A stretch of 61,712 nucleotides of DNA from a virus (lineage: Duplodnaviria; Caudoviricetes). The notes below the pieces were generated by a model. The model ran no database searches. It was not told the DNA's origin and was given only the letters and a program-made list of their open reading frames with translations. The DNA lies in the IMG/VR virus record IMGVR_UViG_3300027917_000003, positions 1-61,712 of that record; one strand, given 5' to 3'. Position numbers and translations under genes: made by a program. Positions 1 to 61,607 of the stretch are shown in pieces. Positions within the stretch are counted from its first letter, which is position 1. The number at the start of each line of letters is the position of its first letter.

Positions 1-99
1 TACTCCTTATTAGGTTCCAAGAACGCCGGACTTCATCGCCGTGTTGTTGAACGAGACGATGATGCGGTTGTACGCGGCGGTGTAGTCGTTGCCGGGGAT
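1..99. repeat. Terminal direct repeat, left copy (circular-assembly overlap)
   Basis: 1-99 identical to 61614-61712; the reading frame and RBS run across the junction into the capsid gene. Confidence 0.95.
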
Positions 100-699
100 G
101 GACTGGAGCGGGTTCGAGCCATCCGGGGCATAGTTGGCGAGGCCAACGATGCGGAAGGGATAGGTCGCCGCAGTGCCCATCACGCTGGTGCTGTCAGCGT
201 AGGCGGTCGAGATGCCGGTGGACACGTTGCCCGGCGTGGTGCCGAGGGTGTTCGTGTTGGTGCCGGTGCCCGTGCCGTAGGCCACGCCGATGTTCTCGCC
301 GATGTTGGCGACGCCAACGGCGGTGGAACCGGCCTGAACGATGAACTTCGCGTTCGGGTCGGTGATGACGTAAGCCTCAACGCCCGCGTTGGAGTTCACG
401 TCGCCGACGCCGGGGAAGTAGTTGGACCACACGGGGCGCTTCTGCGACACCGAGAGGTACTTGCAGCCGATGAACACGCCGACGAGGTAGCCGGAGCCAG
501 CCGCAGGGGTGTTGGTGGTGCTGTTGGTGCCGAGCTGGCAAATATAGCCAGTGCTCAACTGGGCGACGGGATCGCCAGAGAAGATCTGGGGATTGGTCGA
601 GCTGGAGGGAGAAATGGAGAGCGCGACCTGCTCATAGGTCGGGGCCGAACCAGTGCCCTGATACTGCTGGAAACCGTTGGGCGCATTGGTATTCGCCAT
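10..699 (-). CDS. Putative capsid decoration/minor head protein
   Basis: 229 aa, G/T/N-rich beta-type sequence; AGGAG RBS; directly upstream of the major capsid gene across the junction. Confidence 0.6.
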   Translation of the reverse strand: MANTNAPNGFQQYQGTGSAPTYEQVALSISPSSSTNPQIFSGDPVAQLSTGYICQLGTNSTTNTPAAGSGYLVGVFIGCKYLSVSQKRPVWSNYFPGVGDVNSNAGVEAYVITDPNAKFIVQAGSTAVGVANIGENIGVAYGTGTGTNTNTLGTTPGNVSTGISTAYADSTSVMGTAATYPFRIVGLANYAPDGSNPLQSIPGNDYTAAYNRIIVSFNNTAMKSGVLGT

Positions 700-839
700 G
701 ACGGGTTCTCCTTTTTACGGGAAAAGCTCGTCACTTCACACCGGGGAAGCTCAGAAGCCGGGGGTAGGCGAACCTCCCACGCCGGGGGGAGGTAAGGCAC
801 AGAGTGACCTTGAAGACGCAGCATATACACATTTGAAAC

Positions 840-869
840 AAAAGAAAAGGGGGCCCGTTACGGCCCCCT
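840..869 (-). terminator. Rho-independent terminator
   Basis: AGGGGGCC/GGCCCCCT stem followed by a U-rich tract on the minus strand. Confidence 0.75.
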
Positions 870-878
870 GATCGGTGC

Positions 879-1424
879 TTAGAGATCCTCGGGGATCGGC
901 ATGTCGAACGTCTTCTTGATGTTCGGGCGGACGCGGGGATCGTCGCGAGTGAAGGTGCCCTCGGGGGCGCCAGCGATCTGGGCCTCCTTGATGCGCACCT
1001 GCTCGCGGGCCTTGCGCAAGTCAATCCGGCGCACCTCCTCCGAGATCTCGGACGGGCGCTCCATGAGGACCATGCCTTTGCGCTCAATGGTGCCCTTGTC
1101 CCAATTGGAGGGCATCATTTGCGGGTGGCGTTTGGCCGGGACGGGCTCCCACCCCTCGCGGGCGAGCTGCACCGCGTAGGCGGGGTCCTCTTGGTTCCAA
1201 ATCGTGTGGCGCTTCCACTCGTAGGTCCAGCCGTCAGGAATGATGTCCTTCGGGATGTAGAACTCGTCGGTGCCCTCGTCCATGCCGCCGTTGTCGTTGC
1301 GGATTTGGGCCGCGCGGGCTGCGGCGCGGGCGCGGGGGTCTTCATCACGCAGTTCGGGTCTCATTGGGGTGCGCTCCGTGTTTGCCGACTTTTCGGCGAG
1401 GACTCGTTGGAATTTGTTGGTCAT
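879..1424 (-). CDS. Hypothetical head-module protein
   Basis: 181 aa, overlaps the scaffold stop (ATGA); lies between scaffold and capsid genes. Confidence 0.65.
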   Translation of the reverse strand: MTNKFQRVLAEKSANTERTPMRPELRDEDPRARAAARAAQIRNDNGGMDEGTDEFYIPKDIIPDGWTYEWKRHTIWNQEDPAYAVQLAREGWEPVPAKRHPQMMPSNWDKGTIERKGMVLMERPSEISEEVRRIDLRKAREQVRIKEAQIAGAPEGTFTRDDPRVRPNIKKTFDMPIPEDL

Positions 1425-4335: not shown

Positions 4336-7300
4336 TCAAGCTTGCCGGGATACTAACATAAGGGCGCGATCAACGACAGAGCCGCCATGCTTGCGTCCCT
4401 CGGCGGCAGGAGAAGGTTCTTCGCCACCTTCTCGCATAAGCTCAGGAGCCATTGATCCCGCAGCCGTAACGCCTGCGGCGCCGTAGAGCGGGATCTCGCT
4501 GCGAACGAGGCCGCGACGGACGATCTCGTCTTTCGGCATGCCGGTGATGCGATGAGTGCGCTCAATGGCCTCGTTGACGATGCCAATCATTGGCTGCGCC
4601 TTGAAGCCGCCGGGCGTTTTCATGTCTTTAATGCCTGCCCAACCCACTTCTTGGAAGTAACGAGGATCGTAACCCATAGATCCGGCAAGATCGCTTAAAG
4701 CCCCTTCGTAATGACCGTAGCTTCCCGTGGGAGGCATACTCATTTTTGGGTCCCATGCGCCGCTCATCTGCTCGTCAATGGTCGGTGTTTTTTTGCCGAG
4801 GAAGTTGGCGGAAAAGTTGTACCTTTTGGGGTTTTCATAGGTCAGGCCTTCGCCCTCCATGATCATCTTGCGATACTGGTCCATGTTGTTTTGGATGCCG
4901 TATTTCCCGCCCGCGACCGGGAAAGGATACTCATAGGCCTTCGTCGGCATTGGCTCGCCGCGAGCGTGGAGATAGTTGCCGAAATGAGCCATCATCAAAT
5001 TAGATGTAGGATCTGCGCCGCCAGTGGTCGCTGCCATTGCGTCAGGGAATTTCTCCTTGAACATTTTGCGGCCCAACTCTGGGCCGTATTCATTGATAAA
5101 TTCACGCTCAAGCTGGCCCATGAAGTACCAATTTTCGGCCATCTCCTTTTGTTTCAAGCCGTGCTCGAAGCCCGCTTGGAGATTTTCCATTGCCTGCGGG
5201 TCGCGAGCTTTTTCCTCATAAGCAGCAATCGCCTTCGGCGACTTCATTTGCACAAGTTCGCGCGTGTTTGGCTGGATCTCAGGATAATGAGAGGGATCAA
5301 CGTCAAAACGCTCTGACAGCGGGAAGTAGGGCTCATAGTTCCCGGCGTTGATTTCCTTTTGAGCCGCGATGCGCGCCTTCTGAACAGCAATTGCTTCAGG
5401 GCTCAAGGTCTTAGCCAAGAACTCTTTGCCGGTTTTCTTGTCGATGGCCGGAACGGGCGGCACCATTTCAGGATAGCGTTCTGCAACTTGGGGGAAAACG
5501 CCGACTTTAGCCGGAGATTTTTCTGCCGCTTTGCGAACAAGCTTCAGCGCGGCGCCGGTCAACCCGCCGCCTTCAAAATGATCACGCATGTCTTCGCCTT
5601 TCATTACCTCGCCCCCACGGGCATGGGCGGACTGGCCGCGCAGGATGCTCTCGCGCATGGCGGGGGTGATGGTGATTTCGTGGACCGGCTGATTGTAGCC
5701 CTGATAGAGCAGGTCACGCGCCTTGTCAGCCTCGCGGAAGCTGCCAAACCTCGGCGACAATTCCGTAATGCCTTCGCGGTCTGGATGGCGCCCGGACACC
5801 CAATACTGGCCGCCCTCGTTTTCAATTTGGGCCGAGTAGGGCCATGAGTCGCCGGGAGCGAGGTTGCTCACATAGCCTCGGCCAACCTTGACGCTCGGAT
5901 CATGCTTTTTGGTCAGCAACTGGAGCCGCTTGGGAACCATCTCGTCGTAATAGCCGAGCATACCTTGGCCGCCGACAGTGAGGTCGAGGCCTTCGATGCT
6001 CTTGTGATTGCGTCCGCGATAGGACTTGCCCTCGTCGTTGACGATCTTGTTCGCCACGTCCTTGCCGAGGTATTGTTCCAGCTCTTTGGCGGTGAATACG
6101 TCTTGCGGAAGATCGACGCTGTCGCCTTCTTTGTTCACAATCCCCAAGCGGTAGGCGTCGTCGCCTTCTTTCATGTAGTCAATTGAGTTCACTTGATTGC
6201 TCAGGCTGTACCGCTTTGCCTGATCAGCGCCCTGCGTGAAGGCGACCTTGTCATAGCCATTGTCCACCGCGTCCTTGAGAATGCGCTTCAGGGTCAGGTC
6301 AGTCCATTGCTGGGTGTTGCCGACATACGGCCCCATAGGAACGCCAGTATCCTGCATTGCCTCTTGCTGCCTGCGAACGTCAATTAGACCTTGCAGGTCT
6401 TGGCTGGTCTGGCGCACTCGATTGACCGACGCTTCAAAGTCGGGGTGCGTCCTCAGTACCTCTTGGCGCATGGCCTCATGCGCTTGCTGGGCGCGATTGT
6501 ACTCACCGGGGGACATTGTCCTTGGGTCAGGCATCTTTTCAATAGATTGGTTGATCTGTTTGAGCAGTTCCTGATGGCTGTTCGCGGCCTCATTGTAGGC
6601 GTCCTCGGCGGCGCCAAGTTTGGCCTCGAACGCCGGATCTGCGGGCTTTATAAATCCAAAATCGGACGGCACAACTTTGGTGGCCTCTTCTTTTGAAAGG
6701 CCCCGCTCTTTCATCACGCGCTTGACTTCGTCGTTGCGGATGTCGCGAGCCGCCTGCGCCCAGTCGCTTTGCAGCTCATCCACAAGCATGATTTTTTCGC
6801 CGTTCGGGCCGATCTTGGTCTTCCGGCGGTAATGCGCGACGACGTTCTCGTCACCGGGCCAGTGGGAAGATCGGAACACAGGATTGCGTTCGGCGATCTC
6901 GCGTGGCGATACTATTGCACCTTCAGGAGCGGCGGCTTGCGCCTCTTCCCGTGTAGCAAACGTGCTCTTGCTGTTAGTTTGTGTAGCAGGGTCAAACCAT
7001 TCAAATGCAAAATCGCGTTCTTGCCTATTGGGCGCCATCAGCCGGACTTCGCGGTAGTCCTCGCCGCCGGGGGTGGAGTACCGCTCAAAGCGCGTCGGAG
7101 ACCCAGCAGATCCCTGCCAATTTTCGGCCCACAGGCGCAATTGGGTGTCGTTTTGGGGATGGCCGCCCTGCTCGACGATATACTTGTCGTAGAGGTCGTC
7201 GTAGTTGGCCCTAAACTCGGCGTCAGACATTTTCTTGCGGGAACCGCCCGATACGCGCTCGGTGATTTGCGGCATCGTGTCCATAAAGTGCTGGGCGATC

Positions 7301-8316
7301 TCCTCGCGGGTCACAATCGGGCGCCCGCCGAAGGTCTGGAGATAGCTCTCCATCTCAGGCCCCTTTACGCCCGCCTTCTCAAGCATCGAGCGGAATTGCT
7401 GCGGCGAGCCCTTGGCCTGCGACAACCCACGCGCCGCCTCGGCCCCGTGGCTGTAGAAGCCCAGCGGCGACAGTTCGCGGGGGATCGCCATGCGGGCGAC
7501 TTCCATCGCCTTGGACAGTTTGCTCGCCTCGGCGTCTTCGGGCGCCAGCATGGCTCCGGCTGCGGTGGCGGCGCCTGCGGCTCCGGGCGATGGCATGCGC
7601 ACCCTGTCCCACGGCTGCGTGGCCATCCGCTCCAGACTGCCCGCCCTAGCGAACGGCGTGACCATGCCCCGGACGCCGCCGGTCAGGGCCGCGTCGGCCA
7701 CCATCTCAGCCGCCTGCGCGTCCTTCAGGTTTCCCGTGATGCGCAGATATGGGTCGCGCACCAGAACGCGCTCCAAGGCCGTCAGCGGGGCCATGCCAGC
7801 GCCCAGAAACCCTCCGGCCATGCCGAGAGCCCCGGCGCCGTAGTTGCCCTCCTTGGCCGCTTTCCAGCCCTCCCTGATGGCTTCGGAGTTTTCGTCCATC
7901 GCCTCGCCCCAACGCTTCCAGTAGCTACCGGGGACGCGCTGCGGCATGTATTTGTCCCAGCCCGTGGGGGCGGCGGACATGAAGGTCTCGCCCTTCGGCA
8001 ACTCGCCCTCTACGCCCAAGGCGCGCGTCAGGCGCTCGCCCTCGGTCGATCCGGCGTCGGACCATGTGCGTTCGGCGGGATTGTAGGCGGGCTGGCGCGC
8101 GGCCTGCCGGACCACGCTCTCTGGCATTGGCATGTAGGAGAAGGTCGGTGGCGCGGGCGTGGGCTCCCTGCCCGACCCGCCAGCCTCGTCGGCGACGGGG
8201 ACCTTGCCACGGTAGATCGTCAGCGGGCGGGGCTGGTCAGGATCGACGTAGCTTCCGTCCTCGCCGTCGAAGTGGCGGCGGAGCATGTGGAGGGCATGAT
8301 CGACCGGGTCATCCAT
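4336..8316 (-). CDS. Large multi-domain (polyvalent-type) virion-associated protein
   Basis: 1326 aa next to the portal; LGFYS...GSPQQF and AHYR...G.K.MLVDELQSDW modules; C-terminal module with TID...Q..GW. Confidence 0.6.
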   Translation of the reverse strand: MDDPVDHALHMLRRHFDGEDGSYVDPDQPRPLTIYRGKVPVADEAGGSGREPTPAPPTFSYMPMPESVVRQAARQPAYNPAERTWSDAGSTEGERLTRALGVEGELPKGETFMSAAPTGWDKYMPQRVPGSYWKRWGEAMDENSEAIREGWKAAKEGNYGAGALGMAGGFLGAGMAPLTALERVLVRDPYLRITGNLKDAQAAEMVADAALTGGVRGMVTPFARAGSLERMATQPWDRVRMPSPGAAGAATAAGAMLAPEDAEASKLSKAMEVARMAIPRELSPLGFYSHGAEAARGLSQAKGSPQQFRSMLEKAGVKGPEMESYLQTFGGRPIVTREEIAQHFMDTMPQITERVSGGSRKKMSDAEFRANYDDLYDKYIVEQGGHPQNDTQLRLWAENWQGSAGSPTRFERYSTPGGEDYREVRLMAPNRQERDFAFEWFDPATQTNSKSTFATREEAQAAAPEGAIVSPREIAERNPVFRSSHWPGDENVVAHYRRKTKIGPNGEKIMLVDELQSDWAQAARDIRNDEVKRVMKERGLSKEEATKVVPSDFGFIKPADPAFEAKLGAAEDAYNEAANSHQELLKQINQSIEKMPDPRTMSPGEYNRAQQAHEAMRQEVLRTHPDFEASVNRVRQTSQDLQGLIDVRRQQEAMQDTGVPMGPYVGNTQQWTDLTLKRILKDAVDNGYDKVAFTQGADQAKRYSLSNQVNSIDYMKEGDDAYRLGIVNKEGDSVDLPQDVFTAKELEQYLGKDVANKIVNDEGKSYRGRNHKSIEGLDLTVGGQGMLGYYDEMVPKRLQLLTKKHDPSVKVGRGYVSNLAPGDSWPYSAQIENEGGQYWVSGRHPDREGITELSPRFGSFREADKARDLLYQGYNQPVHEITITPAMRESILRGQSAHARGGEVMKGEDMRDHFEGGGLTGAALKLVRKAAEKSPAKVGVFPQVAERYPEMVPPVPAIDKKTGKEFLAKTLSPEAIAVQKARIAAQKEINAGNYEPYFPLSERFDVDPSHYPEIQPNTRELVQMKSPKAIAAYEEKARDPQAMENLQAGFEHGLKQKEMAENWYFMGQLEREFINEYGPELGRKMFKEKFPDAMAATTGGADPTSNLMMAHFGNYLHARGEPMPTKAYEYPFPVAGGKYGIQNNMDQYRKMIMEGEGLTYENPKRYNFSANFLGKKTPTIDEQMSGAWDPKMSMPPTGSYGHYEGALSDLAGSMGYDPRYFQEVGWAGIKDMKTPGGFKAQPMIGIVNEAIERTHRITGMPKDEIVRRGLVRSEIPLYGAAGVTAAGSMAPELMREGGEEPSPAAEGRKHGGSVVDRALMLVSRQA

Positions 8317-19730: not shown

Positions 19731-19946
19731 TCATTCCCACGCCCTTTTCGTGTCGTCGGGGTGGTAAGGGCGGTATTCCTGAAGGTCTCCCGGCACCAGC
19801 ATGAGGAAGTCCTCGGTGTGGTGCCAGACCAATTTCATGCCCTCTGGGGCGGTCAGGGAGTAGTCCTCAATGACCATGCAGGGTATCCACAGCCCCTTCA
19901 TCAGGCGGGTCTTCCAGCGGCGCTTGGAGATCTGTTTGAGGCGCAT
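19731..19946 (-). CDS. Hypothetical protein
   Basis: Coupled ORF. Confidence 0.55.
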   Translation of the reverse strand: MRLKQISKRRWKTRLMKGLWIPCMVIEDYSLTAPEGMKLVWHHTEDFLMLVPGDLQEYRPYHPDDTKRAWE

Positions 19947-20434
19947 CAGACCTTCCTCCGGGGATCTTGATAGTAGGCGTAAGTGTCCGGCGGCTGGGAC
20001 ATGAAGACGACATCGTCGGGGCCGTAGACGCGGTTGTCGGCGCCCTTGCCGATTGTCTGAACGGCGAAGGGAGCCGCTTCATGGTGCAGGCGGAAGGCCT
20101 GCGGCTCCGGGTGCTGGAAGAACCGCATGGCCTTCTCATCCGCCCGGCTCTCAATGGCCGCCGTCTGAAGGCCGGACATGGACAGGCGGTTGGTGGCGAG
20201 GCCGAGGCGCATATAGAAGCCCTCGCTCAGGAAGGCGAAGGGGTCGCCAGCCGTCTCCATGAGCTTCGTCTCGACCCACTCGCCGGTGACGAGGTCGCGG
20301 CCCCTGACGAGCATGTATGGCTCGAACGGGATGACCTTCACGGGCATCAGGTTCTGGGCGCTGACGATGGCGGGCGCCGCAAACAGGGACGCCATGCCGG
20401 TGAGGAAGCCCCTGCGTGATGATGTTAAGCTCAT
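19946..20434 (-). CDS. Protein with twin-arginine (Tat)-like signal
   Basis: SRRGFLTGMASLFAAPAIVSA. Confidence 0.7.
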   Translation of the reverse strand: MSLTSSRRGFLTGMASLFAAPAIVSAQNLMPVKVIPFEPYMLVRGRDLVTGEWVETKLMETAGDPFAFLSEGFYMRLGLATNRLSMSGLQTAAIESRADEKAMRFFQHPEPQAFRLHHEAAPFAVQTIGKGADNRVYGPDDVVFMSQPPDTYAYYQDPRRKV

Positions 20435-20652
20435 GCTATCTTCTCCCATCTCAGGTCAAGGGAATGTTCGGGCCAGACGTGATTGACCGTCCCGCAATGC
20501 TCACACGGAGCATATTCGTTGGTATACTCATGCTCGACGTGGATGCGCCACGGCCAGCGGTCGCGGATCTCGGCCTTGTAGCGGAAGTCCAGCTCGCCCG
20601 CCGAGGTCTTCGTGCAGGCGTTGCACTTGAAGCTGATGGGCTCAAGGGGCAT
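20431..20652 (-). CDS. Zn-ribbon protein
   Basis: CNAC...CEHC. Confidence 0.65.
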   Translation of the reverse strand: MPLEPISFKCNACTKTSAGELDFRYKAEIRDRWPWRIHVEHEYTNEYAPCEHCGTVNHVWPEHSLDLRWEKIA

Positions 20653-28165: not shown

Positions 28166-29123
28166 CGGTGAAGCCCACACCGCAGGGTACAAGGTAACGT
28201 GCTGCCGCTGCCAGAGTGTAGATAACATCGGCGCCGGTTCTCACTCCGGCAACTTACCGCCCGAGGTGATCAGTAAAAAGTTCACGCAGCGCGGGTGGCG
28301 CCTCGGCAAGCGTTTGAATTTGGACGTCTGCCCCCAGTGCATCACCAAAGAAAAAATCTCTCGCAAGTCGATCAAGCTCGGCGACTTGTCGAAGAATGAC
28401 GTGCAGGTGCTCGGCCTTGGGGCGGCGCCACCCCATCCCGTCGAAGAGAAGACCCTGACGATCATTGAGGCCATCAGGTTCGGATGGGCGAGCAAGCCCA
28501 CAATCTACCGTTACATCGCAGACGGCAGGCTTCCCTGCATAAAGGAGGACGGAAAAATGCTCCGCGTGAAAGAAAGTGACTTAGAGAGCGCCTTTAAAGA
28601 CATGCGCAGATCTGCTCCCCGGCCAGTCATTCACTTGAAGACCAAGCAGTCAGTGAATGAACCGGCACCGCCAGTTAATGACCCCAAGCCCCTATTGAAT
28701 GAAGGAGACGCCCCAGTGGCCACCATACCCATAGCCCCCATGACAAAGGAAGACCGGCGCATCATCTTCAGCGAGATTGACAGCCACTACCTCGACGAGC
28801 TGCGCGGCTATGCCAAGGACTGGGACGACCTGAAAGTGGCCACCGGGCTGAAGGTCCCCGTTGAGTGGGTCCGCGTCATCCGAGAAGATAATTTTGGCGC
28901 TGAGAAGGGAGACCAAATTGGCATTGAAATTGAGAAGCTCAAAGCGTCCAGCGCCGAGGCCGAGAAGCTGATCCAGACCATGCGCACTCTGTGGGAGGCG
29001 ATGGATAAGACTCTTGAAGAGTTTGAGGCCAAGCAGGCCGCCCTTTCCGAAGAGGCCACCAAAGTCCACGCCGCCATCGCGGACGCGAGGGGCAAGATCG
29101 ACGCCTACACCAACGGCAAATGA
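28134..29123 (+). CDS. Zn-ribbon + excisionase/MerR-like HTH + coiled-coil protein
   Basis: CCRC...CPQC; LTIIEA....SKPTIYRYIADGRLP. Confidence 0.65.
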   Translation: MNRTFERVTFNGEAHTAGYKVTCCRCQSVDNIGAGSHSGNLPPEVISKKFTQRGWRLGKRLNLDVCPQCITKEKISRKSIKLGDLSKNDVQVLGLGAAPPHPVEEKTLTIIEAIRFGWASKPTIYRYIADGRLPCIKEDGKMLRVKESDLESAFKDMRRSAPRPVIHLKTKQSVNEPAPPVNDPKPLLNEGDAPVATIPIAPMTKEDRRIIFSEIDSHYLDELRGYAKDWDDLKVATGLKVPVEWVRVIREDNFGAEKGDQIGIEIEKLKASSAEAEKLIQTMRTLWEAMDKTLEEFEAKQAALSEEATKVHAAIADARGKIDAYTNGK

Positions 29124-29134
29124 GGAGTGCAGAA

Positions 29135-29467
29135 ATGAACCACACTGATATTTTGACCCAGTCCGTTCTCACGCTCCGCGACCGTGACGCCCAGTATGGC
29201 AGCATGCAGGACACCATGATCCGTGCATGTGAGATCTTCGAGATGATCACTGGCAAGGAGCTGTCACCCTATCACGCCAACATCTTCATGCATGCTCTGA
29301 AGCTGGCGCGTGTCAGGACATCTCCCGGCAAGCTCGACAACTACATTGACGGCATCAACTATCTGGCCTTCGCTGGCGAGTTTGCCGTGCCCACGGGCAG
29401 CGCCGAAGAGATCGTCAACGCCGGGATGCGTGACCTCGTCGATCAGCTCAACACGCAGGAGGGCTAG
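29135..29467 (+). CDS. DUF6378-like protein
   Basis: RDAQYG...LKLAR...DNYIDGINYLA. Confidence 0.75.
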   Translation: MNHTDILTQSVLTLRDRDAQYGSMQDTMIRACEIFEMITGKELSPYHANIFMHALKLARVRTSPGKLDNYIDGINYLAFAGEFAVPTGSAEEIVNAGMRDLVDQLNTQEG

Positions 29468-29746
29468 ATGGAGATGGAGTTAAACGACAAGCATCTGACG
29501 ATGCTGCTCGCGGCGATTGGTCAGAAGCTCTCCAATTCTGAAGAGGAGGCATATGGGCCGAGCCTCGCCTGTGTCGCCAGCTTCGCCACGAAGCTCATCA
29601 CGACTGTCGTCGTCGGCCATGCTGACAGTCGCGAGGAGGCCCTTGAGGGCGTCCGCAGCGCCCTCGCAGACTGCGAGATAATGGTCAACAAGGCCTATGA
29701 CGTTATCGAACCGTTGTTGGCTATGAGAGATGGAAAGGCTCACTAA
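29468..29746 (+). CDS. Hypothetical protein
   Basis: In operon. Confidence 0.6.
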   Translation: MEMELNDKHLTMLLAAIGQKLSNSEEEAYGPSLACVASFATKLITTVVVGHADSREEALEGVRSALADCEIMVNKAYDVIEPLLAMRDGKAH

Positions 29747-30015
29747 TGTCTTACGCAAAAGGCGATCTCACCTGTGACGAGAAGCTCAGGGCGGCCTATG
29801 CCTACCTGATCAACGGCATCCCGCAGCACCACATTGCCGCCCTCTACGGCGTCAATCAGGGCCGCATTAGTGAGGCCGTGGCGCTCGTGGCCAAGGCATG
29901 CGGGTTCCCCATCAAGGGAGGCGCCGTGCAGGACGTGTCGGACGAGTTCGGCATGCCGTACACCCCGGCGGACGCCAGCTTCCTCAAGAATAGGACCACC
30001 CCGGAAAACAGGTAG
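29746..30015 (+). CDS. Small HTH protein
   Basis: GIPQHHIAALYGVNQGRISE. Confidence 0.65.
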   Translation: MSYAKGDLTCDEKLRAAYAYLINGIPQHHIAALYGVNQGRISEAVALVAKACGFPIKGGAVQDVSDEFGMPYTPADASFLKNRTTPENR

Positions 30016-30112
30016 TCCCAAATTGGTACAGCGTATGCGTGTCTGCGTTAATGAAATGGCGACTTCTCTGCCCTAGAGTGGGGAAGTCGCCGCCATTGAT
30101 ATGGAGATTGAC

Positions 30113-30358
30113 ATGGCCCGCATACAGGACAAGTTGAGGAAGACCAACCTCTTCATCGACCCCGCCTACCCCGTCAGCAAGAGTGTGCTGATCAACCCGG
30201 ACGGCCCCGCCGCCGCCGACTACATCGACAACCTCGTCCAGAAACTGAGCCATATCGCCCACCTCGCGATCAACAACATTGACGACGAGGCCGTGAAGGC
30301 CGACATCTGGAAGTCTTATTATGAAGCAGTGGGAGTTAAATATGACATTGAATGCTGA
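30113..30358 (+). CDS. Hypothetical protein
   Basis: ATGGAGATTGACATG leader. Confidence 0.65.
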   Translation: MARIQDKLRKTNLFIDPAYPVSKSVLINPDGPAAADYIDNLVQKLSHIAHLAINNIDDEAVKADIWKSYYEAVGVKYDIEC

Positions 30359-30426
30359 GTTTCAGATCGTTGGAGCCCTGATGCTCCTTGTGGCCGTCAA
30401 CATCATCATCGCGTGGGGGATGTAAC

Positions 30427-30675
30427 ATGAGAAAGCCGGAACGCTTTGCAGGCGAGGACTACCAAGGCGAGCGCCGCAAGGGCACACGCTTTGGAACCCT
30501 GTGGGCCAACTATGAGACAGGCGAAGCCGACGTGACGCTGACGCTTGAGTTCTGCGACGAGGACTGGCTGATGCGGGCCGATCTCTTGCAGGATGTCATT
30601 GGCCTGCTCAATCGCGAGTATGAAAAAGCCCTCAATGATATTGAGAGGGCTTTCCCGGTCAAAAAAAATGACTGA
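30427..30675 (+). CDS. Hypothetical protein (start MRKPER)
   Basis: In operon. Confidence 0.6.
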   Translation: MRKPERFAGEDYQGERRKGTRFGTLWANYETGEADVTLTLEFCDEDWLMRADLLQDVIGLLNREYEKALNDIERAFPVKKND

Positions 30676-31048
30676 CCTCGTTCAACAATTACGCGACCGG
30701 ATTGCGGAGCTGGAGGAAGAGATCCGCCAGATCCGCAACGACATGTTGCAGGACAGCAATGCCTTCACCCGCATCCTGTCGAAGCAGCAATCGGCATTGC
30801 TGGCGGCGATCTGTAAGAGGCCGACCGCCAACTATGCCTATCTCGACAACGTCACCGAGCATTTCGGTCTCTACAATCGATATGAGGGCGAGATGCACAT
30901 TACGCTCAGGACGCGGGTCGCTGTGTGGAAGCTTCGCAAGAAGCTGAAGCAGTACGGCATTGAGGTCCAGATCCTGCGCGGCACCGGCTACTACATTGAT
31001 GATGAGAACAGAGAGAAATTAAAGAAGCTGATGGAGGTGAAGGAATGA
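30668..31048 (+). CDS. Coiled coil + OmpR/CtrA-type winged-helix DNA-binding domain, no receiver domain
   Basis: LSKQQSALL...VAVWKLRKKL...I....RGTGYYI. Confidence 0.75.
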   Translation: MTDLVQQLRDRIAELEEEIRQIRNDMLQDSNAFTRILSKQQSALLAAICKRPTANYAYLDNVTEHFGLYNRYEGEMHITLRTRVAVWKLRKKLKQYGIEVQILRGTGYYIDDENREKLKKLMEVKE

Positions 31049-31149
31049 TCGCAATCATTGAGATCCTGCTCGTGGTATTGGCCTGCATGATACTGGCAGG
31101 CATCATCCTCTTCGTCGCTCGTATGATCGGAACCTTGTGGGGGAAGTGA
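31045..31149 (+). CDS. Small membrane peptide (34 aa)
   Basis: MIAIIEILLVVLACMILAGIILFVAR; GGAGG RBS. Confidence 0.5.
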   Translation: MIAIIEILLVVLACMILAGIILFVARMIGTLWGK

Positions 31150-31150
31150 G

Positions 31151-31435
31151 ATGACTGAATGGCAACCAATCGAAACCGCGCCAAAGGATGGAACACATTT
31201 TCTGTCAACATCCAGATATTTGGGTGGTGAAATTTTTATCTGCACTTGGAGCGACAGAACATTGGTTCACAGTGATGGAAAAGAGCATCACAGTGGTTGG
31301 TGGGTGGTTGGTATTCCTAAACGGTATTATGCTGGTTGGGGGCCATTTTATTCTCCAATCAAGCAAGATGACCTGATGCCTACCCACTGGATGCCTTTGC
31401 CTGCGCCGCCTAAAAGGGGGAAGAAAAATGGCTGA
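31151..31435 (+). CDS. DUF551-like protein
   Basis: WQPIETAPKDGT...PTHWMPLP. Confidence 0.75.
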   Translation: MTEWQPIETAPKDGTHFLSTSRYLGGEIFICTWSDRTLVHSDGKEHHSGWWVVGIPKRYYAGWGPFYSPIKQDDLMPTHWMPLPAPPKRGKKNG

Positions 31436-31712
31436 TCTCATCATGCCGCGCCGCAAGTTCCTCACGGGTCTCATGGGCCTTGTGGCGGCGCCTGCGGTCG
31501 TGAAGGCCGTCAACATCATGCCGGTGAAGTCCTTTGTTGAGCCGCAGCTCTATACGTTCCCGAATAGGGTGTGGGTGGCGCCTAGCAGCGGCGTCAACCT
31601 TGCCCAGATCCGCGAGCTGCTCATGCCCGGCCTTCGAAAGATGGTGGATGACATGTACACAGAGCATCCCGGCCAATGGAAGTCGATATTTTCGGGAGAG
31701 ACAGATGGTTAA
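31428..31712 (+). CDS. Tat-like signal fused to a capsid-N-terminus-like peptide
   Basis: RRKFL...AAPAVVKA; VNLAQIRELLMPGLR. Confidence 0.75.
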   Translation: MADLIMPRRKFLTGLMGLVAAPAVVKAVNIMPVKSFVEPQLYTFPNRVWVAPSSGVNLAQIRELLMPGLRKMVDDMYTEHPGQWKSIFSGETDG

Positions 31713-31893
31713 AAAACGCGAGCCTTTCATCGTCCACTGCGGCGAATGCAAACACGAATGGACGGCGCTCTATTCACCCATGCTGCTTGATAAGGTCGTC
31801 ACGATCACGATGTCGCTGCACTGCCCCACATGCGCCGCAGGCCCCATGCAGATCTTCTGCGGCCCCGCGCCGAAGGAGAAGGCCGATGGCTGA
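31705..31893 (+). CDS. Zn-ribbon protein
   Basis: CGEC...CPTC. Confidence 0.6.
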   Translation: MVKKREPFIVHCGECKHEWTALYSPMLLDKVVTITMSLHCPTCAAGPMQIFCGPAPKEKADG

Positions 31894-32185
31894 CCTTCAA
31901 GAAAAGTCCATTGAGCTGTGGCGTGAAGAGGCTTGGAAGCTTCACGCCGAGCTTCGAAAGATGGAAGACAAGGTCGCGGGTCTGATACGCCTTGCAGCGC
32001 AGCATATGGACGAGGAGAACAAGGCCCTCGCGCGCGTCGTGATGCTGGAGCAGGCCCTTGATGACGCCCTCGGGGAGTGGGAATACAACGCCACGACCTA
32101 CAAGAGTGATCCGCTTATCAAAAAACACGCGGATCTCGAACAGATCGCCCACTATCGCAAGTTGCTCAACGACAGGCTAAAGTAG
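31886..32185 (+). CDS. Hypothetical coiled-coil protein (start MADLQE)
   Basis: AAGGAG RBS. Confidence 0.6.
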   Translation: MADLQEKSIELWREEAWKLHAELRKMEDKVAGLIRLAAQHMDEENKALARVVMLEQALDDALGEWEYNATTYKSDPLIKKHADLEQIAHYRKLLNDRLK

Positions 32186-32244
32186 GCGTCCCGAAACCGC
32201 ATGGCCGATGGAGAGAATGGTCCTGCCCGCAACAGGAGTTGAGT

Positions 32245-32814
32245 ATGAACAAGATCGCGCTGGCCCTTGTGGCCTTCACCTTGGCGCTGCCCGCCGCCGC
32301 AGACGAAATGACTGCGGCAGAGTTCTTCGCCAGAGATAAGGCAAACAAATGGACCGGCGAGCTGGTCGCCCCGAGAAACCCCTATGGGAAGCTGGTGAAG
32401 CCGTCCAAGATGACGGCGGATAAGCAGAAGGTGATCGACGCCATTGCGCTTCACGTCACCGCCCAGATCGGCTCAAAGTGGGTGGACACGGCCATGCGGA
32501 TCGCGAAGCTGGAGAGCGGCTTTAGTTGCCGTGCGAAGGGTCCAAAGACCCGCCACGGCCACGCCAAGGGCGTCTTCCAGCTCATCGACAGTTCAGCGCG
32601 AACTTTAGGCTTTGACCCGGCGCAGATGTACGACTGCGATCAGAACATCCTCGCGGGGATTGCGCACATGAAGGCCTGCATTGATCTGGGCCATGTGAGC
32701 GAACCTCGCGAGATGGCGGCCTGTCATGTGGCGGGCTGGGCTAAATGGAATGTGAGGCTGGCTCGGCGCCCAGAGCTGTACAAGAGACGGTACGTTGCCC
32801 TCGCAATGAAATGA
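32245..32814 (+). CDS. Secreted lytic transglycosylase (SLT-like)
   Basis: Sec signal peptide; IAKLESGF, AKGVFQL, D.DQNI.AG. Confidence 0.8.
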   Translation: MNKIALALVAFTLALPAAADEMTAAEFFARDKANKWTGELVAPRNPYGKLVKPSKMTADKQKVIDAIALHVTAQIGSKWVDTAMRIAKLESGFSCRAKGPKTRHGHAKGVFQLIDSSARTLGFDPAQMYDCDQNILAGIAHMKACIDLGHVSEPREMAACHVAGWAKWNVRLARRPELYKRRYVALAMK

Positions 32815-32830
32815 TCAAATGGAGAATAAA

Positions 32831-33334
32831 ATGAGGACGCTTGAGGAACTCCACGCACATTACAAGGCCGTTCGCGCCAGATTAGATAACCCCGTTAAGA
32901 AGGAACCCGCAGTCCGCCTCATTTACCCGGAACCAGAACCGGCGCCGTACCCAGACCCCCTCGACGTTGTGGAAGTTGTTGAAGCCCTGCCGGAGGAGCC
33001 CATTGCCGCCCCTCCGGTGGCCACTGAGACCCCTGCAAGAAAGATCCTGTCAGAGGTAGCCGAGAAGCATGGAATGCCTCCCACGGTCTTCCGCAGCAAG
33101 AGCAGGGACGCAACCTATGTGCTGTGCCGTCAGGAGGCGGCTTATCGGCTCAAGACCGAGCTGTCTTTTTCCCTGAGCCAGATTGGCCGCCTGATGGGCC
33201 ACCGGGACCACACGACCGTCCTCCACGCCATCCGTCGATACGAAAAAAATCTCGCCCTCGGCTTGGGGCCTTGGGCGAGCAAGTGCGTCTCGAACGCCTG
33301 TGTCACTCAGGTGGAACCCACAGGCGCGACATGA
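32831..33334 (+). CDS. DnaA C-terminal (domain IV) DNA-binding protein
   Basis: ILSEVA..HG.....RSKSR....CRQEAAY....LSFSLSQIGRLMGHRDHTTVLHA; no AAA+ domain. Confidence 0.9.
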   Translation: MRTLEELHAHYKAVRARLDNPVKKEPAVRLIYPEPEPAPYPDPLDVVEVVEALPEEPIAAPPVATETPARKILSEVAEKHGMPPTVFRSKSRDATYVLCRQEAAYRLKTELSFSLSQIGRLMGHRDHTTVLHAIRRYEKNLALGLGPWASKCVSNACVTQVEPTGAT

Positions 33335-33561
33335 TCATGGATGATCTCAGCTCATCATGCAAGGAGGCCCTTCCCCAGTCGGGGGAGGGTCAACCCATAT
33401 TAGGGGTGACGATATTGGAGCTTCGGCTCTTTTCGTGCCGCTACATAATTGGCTCCGACGAAAACGTCGGGGCCATTTTTTGTGGGAGCCAGACGGCCAA
33501 GGGCTCCTACTGCCAGACCCACTACAGCCTGTGCTACATCAAGACCAAGCCGCTCACTTGA
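33331..33561 (+). CDS. GcrA C-terminal-domain-like protein
   Basis: TILEL...CRYIIG......FCG.....SYC..H...Y. Confidence 0.8.
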   Translation: MIMDDLSSSCKEALPQSGEGQPILGVTILELRLFSCRYIIGSDENVGAIFCGSQTAKGSYCQTHYSLCYIKTKPLT

Positions 33562-34150
33562 TATTCATAAAGCTGCTCAGGCAATAGCGCCCGAGGCCCT
33601 TCCACGGCTCGACGCCGTCCTTCATTTTGACTTGCGTGACGCCGTGGCGCAGGCAGGACGGGAAGATGATCAACATATTGTTCTCGACCAAAATTGTTTC
33701 GTCGAGGTCCGAGAAGACCAGATCGCCGCCCTCGAAATTCCGTGGCTCTTTGAAATGCCAAGAGAGCGCGGTGACCGTCGCTGTATCCGAGTGCGGTTTG
33801 TAGTGATCCGTGGCCTCGTAATAGCTCAACAAGGTCGTGTCTGCGTTCACCGCATTGATGCACTTGGTGAGCGGGTGCAGATCCGCAAAAGCCTTGAACA
33901 CGGGCGCCGAGAAAATTTTCCGGTTGACCTTCAGGATGTTTGACATCGAACGGTCGGCATAGATGTTGTCGAGGAAGACGCCCCTGTTCTTCTTCATCAT
34001 CGGATTGAGCTGGCCGGTGGCCTGCGGTGGCTGGAGCTTGTGCTTGTGCGTCAAGAACTCCAGCTCTTGCCAGATCAGGGCCTGTTCCTCATCGGTGTAG
34101 AAGTTTCGCACGAGTAGGTAGTAGGGGTGCGGCGTTTTAAGGATCTCCAT
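33554..34150 (-). CDS. 2OG-Fe(II) oxygenase
   Basis: Y..HSD, FEGGDL, IFPS..RH.V, R. Confidence 0.85.
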   Translation of the reverse strand: MEILKTPHPYYLLVRNFYTDEEQALIWQELEFLTHKHKLQPPQATGQLNPMMKKNRGVFLDNIYADRSMSNILKVNRKIFSAPVFKAFADLHPLTKCINAVNADTTLLSYYEATDHYKPHSDTATVTALSWHFKEPRNFEGGDLVFSDLDETILVENNMLIIFPSCLRHGVTQVKMKDGVEPWKGLGRYCLSSFMNIK

Positions 34151-60701: not shown

Positions 60702-61607
60702 TTAGGTCGGGAACGCACCGTAGATAGCGCGCCAGTTGTAGTAGCCGAAGCTGTACCGCTCGTAGCCCTTGACCAACAGGTTGTCAGTCGTGAAGTCAAC
60801 CTGCATGTCTGTTTCAAACTTGATACGTTCCATATAGGAAAGGCCATCAATGTTAGTCAACAGGAACCATGCGCGGGCAGACGTAAGGTAATCGTTAACC
60901 ATGTAACCCTCCGGGAGACCTCCCGCAGTGGACATGATAGCGTTCACGTCATTATCTGCCGTGCCGGGGCGCAGTTCGGTCTTCGTCAGGCGGATCGCGA
61001 CCGGCTCAAGAGCGGGCGGGATCACCAGACGGCGACCGCGAGCAAACACCTTCAGACCGGCCTGATCACGGAAGTTCGTGCGGATGGCGATCATGCCAGC
61101 CAGCAACGTGCTCTCGTTGAGGTCGTTGGTGGTGTAGTTCGAGATCGTCGTGCCATCAATCGGGTGGGCCGAGTTGACGAGCGACACGCCGTCACCACCA
61201 ACCGCCGCGTTGTAGGTTGTCGCGGTATTGAGGATGTTGGCGCCGTAGATTTCCTTGGTCTGGGCAAAGGACTGCGTCAGGCCGAGGTTGGAGGGAGCAA
61301 ACTGGCTCTTGTAGAGGTTGTCGTCGATGGCTTTGCGAGTGATCGCATAGCCAAGGCCGATTTCCGTGTGCTCCTGATTGTACACGAAACGCTCGCCAGC
61401 GCCGTTGTCGAACGCGGTCTGGCCGCCTTCGGTCTTGAGCTGGGCGTAGCCCAAAAAGCGCATCTCAGCGGTGCGCTCCAGAGCCATCTTGGAGTCGTGC
61501 TTGGTGAAGATCTTGTCGTACTGCGACGGGATCTGCTCGTACTGACCTTCAACGCCCCGGAGGCCGGGGAGGAGAAGATCTTTGATCGCTGAAAGATTAA
61601 CAGCCAT
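60702..61607 (-). CDS. Major capsid protein (Mu gpT-like HK97 fold)
   Basis: LLLPGL, K.EG...FD, GYAIT..AI.DNLY, DG.SL....HP, LVIPP.L, ERYSFG..WR. Confidence 0.9.
   Translation of the reverse strand: MAVNLSAIKDLLLPGLRGVEGQYEQIPSQYDKIFTKHDSKMALERTAEMRFLGYAQLKTEGGQTAFDNGAGERFVYNQEHTEIGLGYAITRKAIDDNLYKSQFAPSNLGLTQSFAQTKEIYGANILNTATTYNAAVGGDGVSLVNSAHPIDGTTISNYTTNDLNESTLLAGMIAIRTNFRDQAGLKVFARGRRLVIPPALEPVAIRLTKTELRPGTADNDVNAIMSTAGGLPEGYMVNDYLTSARAWFLLTNIDGLSYMERIKFETDMQVDFTTDNLLVKGYERYSFGYYNWRAIYGAFPT

Follow-up and report, generated by a model that had tools for sequence, protein, structure and literature searches.

A small leader-bearing gene in a non-structural operon

The window, by which we mean the whole stretch of 61,712 nucleotides analysed here, corresponds to a virus record that is complete and bears terminal repeats; it represents a complete, 61.7-kb, podovirus-like phage. 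A long block on the minus strand encodes the small and large terminase subunits, the portal, the major capsid protein, an ejection protein of 1446 aa and the tail fibres, and a second minus-strand block carries a primase-helicase. On the plus strand, an operon extending from about 27.0 to 33.5 kb encodes HTH proteins, a DUF6378 protein, the small leader-bearing protein that is the subject of this work, an SLT transglycosylase and a DnaA-C-like HTH protein. The transglycosylase is itself exported-looking. Integrase and lysogeny genes were not found among the subset of window ORFs that was scanned, nor was an assembly-gene context found around the leader gene. The coordinates of the relevant features are collected in Table 1.

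The ORF described in the earlier note exists and encodes the 94-residue protein quoted there. Its ATG overlaps the stop codon of an upstream ORF (31151..31435), which weakly resembles Pfam DUF551 (E 0.0013, below the cut-off), and its own stop codon overlaps the start of the next ORF, which encodes a cysteine-rich protein of 62 residues. The purine-rich run just upstream of the ATG would act in ribosome binding. Together, the overlapping starts and stops and this purine-rich run fit a translationally coupled gene of the plus-strand operon, and we conclude that the gene is genuine, accessory and coupled in translation to its neighbors. A terminator-like hairpin downstream probably marks the end of the operon. 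As had been remarked, the gene is far from the head genes, residing in a non-structural operon; our guess, made from gene order alone, is that this operon is expressed at a non-late stage. Searches of Pfam, PHROGs and NCBIfam placed the small protein in no family, and blastn of positions 29000-34000 of the window against GenBank phages returned no match. The Atlas model has a pLDDT of 0.52, and the part of the protein behind the leader is a small passenger, probably disordered or unfolded.

Table 1. Positions of the leader genes, the capsid gene and associated features in the window
Feature	Position	Strand	Basis
Shine-Dalgarno-like purine-rich run, 5-6 bases 5' of the ATG	31413..31422	+	read from sequence
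Gene for leader, linker and capsid-arm copy, 94 aa (P0002)	31428..31712	+	ORF list and translation
Twin-arginine-type leader, residues 1-27	31428..31508	+	invariant columns in 30 relatives
Residues 28-54, conserved start I-M-P-V-K followed by a variable linker	31509..31589	+	alignments of relatives
Residues 55-89, diverged copy of the capsid N-terminal arm	31590..31694	+	BLASTP, shuffles, hhalign, capsid HMM
Terminator-like hairpin, 11-bp stem followed by a T run	33450..33475	+	consensus match only
Second leader gene, 167 aa (Atlas copy starts at residue 6)	19946..20449	-	motif scan, leader profile E 1.4e-15
Major capsid protein gene, 301 aa (P0001), HK97 fold	60702..61607	-	phrog_371, AF2, Foldseek
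Capsid residues 2-35, N-terminal arm resembled by the small protein	61503..61604	-	BLASTP, hhalign

Resemblance of the C-terminal segment to the capsid arm

The protein encoded at the capsid locus matches phrog_371, annotated as 'major head protein' (E 2.1e-11). Searching its sequence against the PDB gave nothing useful. An AF2 model based on a 69-sequence alignment of five capsid lineages (alignment A5) reached a pLDDT of 80.5 and a pTM of 0.75, and replaced a model from a shallow alignment of 21 close sequences, for which the pLDDT was 31. The best PDB matches of the model in Foldseek were HK97-fold capsids, among them HK97 Head I (2fs3_A, E 2.5e-12), with the GTA and Mu capsids detected as well. 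In the model, residues 2-35 form a helix (5-11), an extended stretch and another helix (30-33), and residues 79-129 comprise a strand (81-89) and a long helix, the spine helix (104-127). In alignment A5, the columns that are near-invariant belong to the N-terminal arm, the tip of the E-loop, the strand with the spine helix, and a motif of the form G-D-G...H-P.

BLASTP aligned residues 55-89 of the small protein with capsid residues 2-35 (16/35 identical, 24/35 positive, one gap, 35.4 bits, E 5e-8), in agreement with the identities counted in the earlier note. The Smith-Waterman score of the two proteins is 75, which was reached in none of 5000 shuffles of the small protein (mean 27.3, sd 4.3, maximum 59) and in none of 2000 shuffles of the capsid (maximum 49), so that the alignment stands against shuffled controls from either side. 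Moreover, when the C-terminal part of the small protein was compared with all six-frame ORFs of at least 50 aa in the window, the capsid was the best partner, with a score of 78 against 40 for the next. The small protein also matches an HMM of the 69 capsids at positions 4-39 of 303 (i-E 1.3e-5). The resemblance is confined to the arm: with 94 aa compared with the 301 aa of the capsid, the small protein contains none of the E-loop, P-domain and A-domain that complete the HK97 fold.

A word-indexed search recovered 164 relatives of the small protein; among the 120 matches listed, length ranges from 87 to 104 aa and identity from 47 to 90%. The capsid-like segment is retained in these homologs: 106/121 close relatives match the 69-capsid HMM at i-E<0.01, always in the N-terminal arm, compared with 0 when their C-termini were shuffled. 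An hhalign comparison of 30 relatives with the 69 capsids, the kind of profile alignment proposed in the earlier note, paired positions 54-92 of the small protein with capsid positions 1-38 over 39 columns (probability 92.9%, E 3.7e-7). Across the 30 relatives, L58, R62, E63, L65, P67 and Y77 of the arm motif are invariant, and G68, M72 and D74 are conserved at >=90%. In the BLASTP register, L65, P67, G68 and Y77 correspond to capsid L12, P14, G15 and Y23. Five columns of the N-arm are near-invariant across the 69 aligned capsids; the small protein retains these four and lacks G21.

At the DNA level, only about 53 of the 108 aligned positions are identical between the arm copy and the phage's own capsid gene, and no long identical run is present. 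This rules out recent gene conversion from that gene and bears out the earlier view that the segment is not a recent duplication: by this measure, the capsid-arm copy is old. The search for longer proteins sharing words with residues 50-94 found none, and a near-identical source capsid was not turned up, which is weak evidence. The linker of the small protein has no significant match; an apparent similarity of Y-T-F-P-N-R-V-W-V-A to capsid residues 285-294, noticed by eye, had E 7.2 and no HMM match, and was not counted. Prediction of a complex between the capsid (alignment A5) and residues 50-94 of the small protein returned a score of 0.00, 'no answer', which counts neither for nor against binding.

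A common leader with exchangeable passengers

Twin-arginine signals follow the consensus S/T-R-R-x-F-L-K within the first ~15 residues, and a short, weakly hydrophobic h-region leads into a c-region, which contains a basic residue and a small-x-small site for the peptidase. The leader of the small protein has P-R-R-K-F-L-T at residues 7-13, close to the N-terminus as the consensus prescribes, then a hydrophobic stretch rich in G, A, P, V and L (14-25) and V-K-A at 25-27, so that both the h-region and the c-region can be read from the sequence. The protein matched no Tat HMM (Pfam at E<=1, NCBIfam at E<=10) and does not reach the curated cut-offs of PF10518 or TIGR01409. For 27 of 150 distant representatives of the leader family described below, Pfam TAT_signal (PF10518) matched at E<=0.1; the five that were inspected scored 14.1-19.6 bits, compared with the cut-off of 22.7. 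The Tat label we use is one of motif features and not of a passed model. Tat-signal families also appear among the Atlas feature neighbours, at 0.85-0.89, and are leads only.

The leader is conserved to a striking degree. In the 30 relatives, P7, R8, R9, K10, F11, L12, G14, L15, G17, A20, A21, P22, A23, V25, K26, M31 and P32 are invariant and A27 is conserved at >=90%, and in the 150 distant representatives R8 is invariant, with R9, F11, G14 and A20-A23 at >=90%. The motif I/L-M-P-V-K/R, which follows the presumed cleavage site, is nearly invariant; a plain signal peptide seldom shows such conservation, and the leader may thus have a further role. Amino acid identity is 0.86 in the leader and 0.59 in the arm motif, and identity at the third codon positions of conserved residues is 0.59 and 0.56, respectively. 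Because third-position identity is the same in both parts, the constraint acts on the protein and not on the DNA, and for the same reason (0.59, as in the rest of the gene) we rejected the idea that the leader is a DNA recombination handle. Compared with the Tat signal peptides of bacterial periplasmic proteins (PF10518), the leader shares R-R-x-F-L, the short G/A/P-rich stretch, the basic residue and the small-x-small site, but it is phage-encoded and conserved beyond what a signal peptide needs, including the five residues past the presumed cut. The passenger differs too, being a 40-130-aa piece of a virion protein and not a cofactor enzyme, and export here is a prediction from sequence.

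A profile of the 30 relatives, run against 1.84 billion representative proteins, found 2826 clusters at E<=1e-3. The best 150 of these 2826 clusters are represented by proteins of 58-191 aa throughout, which share only their first 35-45 residues and have variable tails. By these matches, small phage proteins with this leader make up a very large family, in which the leader is the module that stays constant. Surveying fusions of a Tat-type leader with a capsid arm, as the earlier note had proposed, upheld the architecture and did away with the notion of a one-off, since the leader is common to 2826 clusters. The small protein combines both marks of a leader-plus-virion-piece family, namely, a conserved leader of 35-40 aa on a small phage protein and a tail in which the origin from a virion protein can be recognised. 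Within the window, the leader profile identified two genes, this one (E 4.6e-26) and a second on the minus strand (E 1.4e-15). For the latter, no virion-derived tail was found: its C-terminal 130 aa scored 45 against all window ORFs, compared with a shuffle maximum of 62, the protein matched no PHROG family, and an Atlas search with its tail found nothing.

The pieces carried behind the leader were characterized with two capsid HMMs. The close-capsid HMM matched 26/150 representatives at i-E<0.01, on capsid positions 2-38 or 79-129, with a few proteins holding both pieces, in non-native order. A broader capsid HMM matched 22/150 at <0.01, comprising 15 N-arms, five strand-plus-spine-helix pieces, one E-loop followed by an N-arm, and one C-terminal strand; the other 128 distant representatives had no match to this capsid family at i-E<0.01. 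At the looser threshold of <0.1, seven proteins contain two pieces, and the N-arm comes last in all seven. The linker differs between relatives, and in some of them it includes a second capsid piece. Other tails come from other virion proteins. In one representative (P0233), residues 62-113 match a P22-type coat protein, that of Pseudomonas phage PAE2, at its residues 2-53 (61.5% identity, E 2e-13); in another (P0197), residues 44-77 match phrog_9953, 'major head protein', at positions 7-40 (E 2.8e-8). The PAE2 coat CDS begins three bases before the match to P0233. A tail-collar domain follows the leader in 3/150 representatives (best E 1e-8) and lectin-like pieces in another 3/150; the majority of tails in the family are unmatched. 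Judging from these alignments, the capsid sequence families that have supplied N-terminal arms number at least three (with positions 2-38, 2-53 and 7-40, respectively), a pattern that chance capture of random gene pieces hardly explains.

To assign arm copies to a source, we typed them against the first 45 residues of the five capsid lineages, a comparison in which shuffled tails reach at most 41. The arm of the small protein scored 83 against the phage's own lineage and 48-63 against the four others. The 121 close relatives divide by nearest lineage into 63 assigned to that of Caulobacter phage GB2A, 53 to that of the window and five to a third. The nearest lineage need not be that of the resident capsid: in one sister genome (G004), the capsid is 95% identical to that of the window, and the leader protein scores 86 against a GB2A-lineage capsid and 37 against its own. 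In another (G001, capsid 87% identical), the same slot holds a copy of capsid residues 79-128 (44% identity, E 6.3e-7; Smith-Waterman score 102, shuffle maximum 53), and in a third (L007) arm-type and spine-type leader genes are located almost side by side. Identity between the copies and the capsid of the same phage is about 45%, whereas orthologous capsids are 85-99% identical. Thus, by these scores, the piece behind the leader is not always taken from the phage's own capsid. The original description of the gene as a Tat signal fused to the phage's own capsid N-terminus is correct here as to the motifs and as to the best-matching lineage (83 compared with 48-63), but no Tat HMM cut-off is reached, and the own capsid is not the rule, as the G004 protein demonstrates. 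Two further tails compared with their own genomes did not rise above shuffles (G002 protein, 45 with a maximum of 59; G007 protein, 42 with a maximum of 48). The best partner of the G002 tail is the N-terminal part of the G002 major head protein, which we regard as a hint.

The gene is patchily distributed. In related contigs the operon is syntenic, and the leader gene diverges from its neighbors: in one (L003) the neighbors are 95-98% identical to those of the window and the leader gene 68%, and in another (L004) two neighbors are 98-100% identical and the leader gene 61%. A search of relatives with the leader profile, for which recovery of both window genes served as positive control, found the leader in none of five GenBank phages (MW202675.1, HTVC023P, DSL-LC04, GB2A and QDWS535), the first of which has a capsid 85.5% identical to that of the window. 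At E<=0.01 it was equally not found in a set of 30 long IMG/VR records that the capsid searches had brought up and from which we selected, of which 14 are GB2A-type, five QDWS535-type, two HTVC023P-type, three DSL-LC04-type and six of the window's own type. In a scan of bacterial genomes, 334 pattern matches gave six confirmed loci. Each of the six lies on a metagenome-assembled contig, and one such contig is 61 kb long and phage-like. As judged from this distribution, the leader gene is accessory, patchy and dispensable, and occupies a swap-prone slot of a non-structural operon.

Possible roles of the leader protein

The reading we tentatively prefer, at less than even confidence, is that the small protein is a Tat-targeted mimic of the capsid docking arm that serves interference or exclusion rather than the building of the phage's own head. 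The leader would bring the protein to the host Tat translocon, where it would either cross the inner membrane or remain parked there. The arm peptide would act as a competitive mimic, occupying whichever factor ordinarily holds on to the arm of the capsid. The target would be related phages or another capsid-recognising factor, not the assembly of the phage's own heads. Interference or exclusion is favored over self-assembly because the gene is dispensable and fast-swapping and because its counterparts in sister genomes copy foreign capsid lineages.

That the arm is a docking element is suggested by comparison with phage P22. In P22 (PMC9965877), the C-terminal helices of the scaffold bind residues N4, D14, E15 and E18 of the coat N-arm together with R101 of the P-domain, and on maturation the arm turns into a loop that reaches into the neighboring subunit. 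The N-arm and the strand/spine pieces copied here are the same two structural elements that make assembly contacts in P22 (PMC9965877). The small protein aligns at positions 54-92 with positions 1-38 of an HK97-fold capsid, and relatives carry a P22-type arm; unlike such capsids, however, it has neither A- nor P-domain and so cannot form a shell. Certain considerations weigh against a docking-arm mimic, among them the lack of a Tat HMM match and the near-invariant motif past the presumed cleavage site. An exported peptide would miss scaffold and capsid in the cytoplasm unless held at the translocon or co-exported with its partner. In addition, the leader may tag proteins for export in general, with passengers of many kinds that have no relation to each other, since 128/150 representatives have no match to this capsid family and some bear tail-collar or lectin-like pieces.

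Known systems resemble this arrangement in parts. CpmB of SaPI1 is a small cytoplasmic protein of a satellite, the end of which mimics the capsid-binding peptide of the helper's scaffold. Likened by description only, the two would share a principle, a small accessory protein with a copied assembly docking peptide that competes with the real partner, but CpmB mimics the scaffold and has no export leader, whereas here it is the capsid side that is copied and placed behind a Tat-type leader. The Spackle and Imm proteins of T4 are periplasmic superinfection-exclusion proteins. HXS is a bacterial periplasmic effector that delays the entry of phage DNA (PMC13128918). Again by description only, the likeness would be that a small protein outside the cytoplasm could act on incoming virion parts; the difference is that Spackle, Imm and HXS are not built from virion fragments, and that HXS is a bacterial system.

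Among the alternatives, the one that fares best, although we consider it unlikely, is that the protein is simply an exported small protein for which the capsid ancestry was mere raw material, the leader being a general export tag. The passenger would then do its work in the envelope or the periplasm and independently of capsid binding, be it by acting on the envelope or by serving as a peptide signal. The leader does precede tail-collar (3/150) and lectin-like (3/150) tails and many unmatched ones, the second leader gene of the window has no capsid-like part, and the gene under study lies near that for the exported-looking SLT transglycosylase. However, 106/121 relatives keep the near-invariant positions of the capsid arm, and arms come from at least three capsid families, a pattern not readily ascribed to chance capture.

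Capsid proteins trigger several defence systems. The protein might accordingly be a decoy, as the earlier note had suggested: the motifs would bind the capsid sensor of an abortive-infection or comparable system before the real capsid appears, and the Tat leader would tether the sensor or carry it off as a hitchhiker. We judge this rather improbable. It would suit the use of precisely the most conserved capsid motifs (alignment A5) and the location of a fast-evolving, patchy gene in a non-structural operon, and Tat hitchhiking of partners that lack a signal is known (PMC4273604). Yet a decoy that binds the sensor would be expected to trigger it, and the arm in G004, which stems from a foreign capsid lineage, would be needless in a decoy for the phage's own capsid.

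A role as head-packaged cargo is improbable to a greater degree. Here the capsid piece would be a ticket into the procapsid via scaffold or shell, and the protein, injected with the DNA, would be sent by its Tat leader to the periplasm of the next host. Since the P22 scaffold binds the coat N-arm (PMC9965877), a copy of the arm could ride on the scaffold; against this, the gene is in a non-structural operon on the strand opposite to the virion genes, and the arm carried by G004 belongs to a lineage other than that of the G004 capsid.

We think it very improbable that the protein, tethered to the membrane, nucleates or regulates how the phage's own capsid assembles. Of the three proposals in the earlier note, a membrane-tethered nucleator is the least likely, the other candidates being a decoy and an inhibitor of competing phage assembly. 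In the window, the arm copy is indeed closest to the phage's own capsid lineage, and the leader would place the protein at the inner membrane, but relatives with 85-97% identical capsids make do without the leader gene (MW202675.1; 0/6 own-lineage genomes), and in sister genomes the slot is taken by other pieces or by arms of foreign capsid lineages. Finally, a functionless relic of illegitimate recombination that copied the 5' end of the capsid gene is scarcely credible: the small size and the lack of a Pfam, PHROGs or NCBIfam family would suit it, but 164 relatives have intact frames, amino acids are conserved where synonymous sites have diverged, and the gene is translationally coupled within its operon.

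A broader scheme, extending the preferred reading of a Tat-targeted docking-arm mimic to the whole family, is speculative, and we hold it to be rather doubtful. It would be a modular system of export-tagged mimics, in which one Tat leader is recombined with conserved virion motifs (the arm, the E-loop tip, the spine helix, the tail collar) and the products capture host sensors or the scaffold, capsid or ejection proteins of rivals, which are then dragged to or through the Tat translocon and thereby evicted, or else jam it, which would go beyond simple inhibition. Literature searches covering the full texts of articles found no description of phage proteins that join a Tat-type leader to pieces of the capsid or of other virion proteins. 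Tat-type leaders and capsid N-arms are each known singly; their combination as a large modular family is new, and no known system is alike. If the reading of these proteins as Tat-targeted mimics is right, a very common class of small phage genes (2826 clusters) would combine the host Tat pathway with mimicry of virion docking motifs. Conflicts among phages, or between phage and host, would then include a principle not described before, thousands of proteins now called 'hypothetical' would gain a function, and the capsid surfaces that partners or sensors recognise would be indicated.

Whatever the function, the leader family constitutes a natural library of Tat-compatible passengers made from fragments of structural proteins. 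Among its tails, the capsid arm and the strand with the spine helix have been chosen repeatedly.

Recurrence of the leader in the phage and its relatives

The window carries a second gene with the twin-arginine-type leader; the start of this protein is probably at residue 6, and its 130-aa tail found no match among the window, PHROGs or Atlas. Leader genes also occur as a nearly adjacent pair in one related contig (L007), where a 67-aa ORF in a different frame sits between the two genes, one with a tail corresponding to the capsid N-terminal arm and the other with a tail corresponding to the capsid strand plus spine helix. In P0240, a 122-aa representative of the leader family, two copies of the leader lie within a single chain; this internal repeat covers about 45 residues, and a lectin-like piece comes after it. 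A leader gene with 60% identity is encoded by L138, a contig of 61,008 bases from genome_contigs that was binned into an Opitutae metagenome-assembled genome. This length is approximately that of a whole phage genome of the window's type, and L138 is probably a phage contig binned together with a bacterium, therefore providing no evidence for the host.

Features discussed, with positions in the window unless stated
Feature	Position	Strand	Remarks
G/S/T/N-rich ORF	10-699	-	229 aa; directly upstream of capsid gene
Large ORF	4336-8316	-	1326 aa; between portal and capsid
Second leader gene	19946-20449	-	167 aa; same leader as 31428..31712 protein
Very hydrophobic ORF	31045-31149		34 aa; upstream of leader gene
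SLT-domain lytic transglycosylase	32239-32814	+	Pfam E 1.5e-6
Phage protein with DnaA C-terminal helix-turn-helix domain	32819-33334	+	Pfam Bac_DnaA_C E 2.5e-16
Leader gene pair	L007, 229-522 and about 706-1035	+	one related contig

Possible virion genes near the capsid gene

No helical scaffold candidate was found between the portal and capsid genes of the window. The G/S/T/N-rich ORF, which lacks a PHROG family and has a similar ORF at the same position in relatives, may encode a decoration, cement or scaffold-like protein. The 1326-aa ORF may encode a large internal protein of the virion; its sole match, to the endolysin family phrog_7348, is weak (E 1.7e-5, about 100 residues).

Operon neighbors of the leader gene

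A distance of 530 bases separates the leader gene from the downstream transglycosylase gene, whose product has a hydrophobic, signal-like N-terminal start; together with the hydrophobic 34-aa ORF, the transglycosylase might have a role in lysis. The gene for the DnaA-C-domain protein is the last in the operon.
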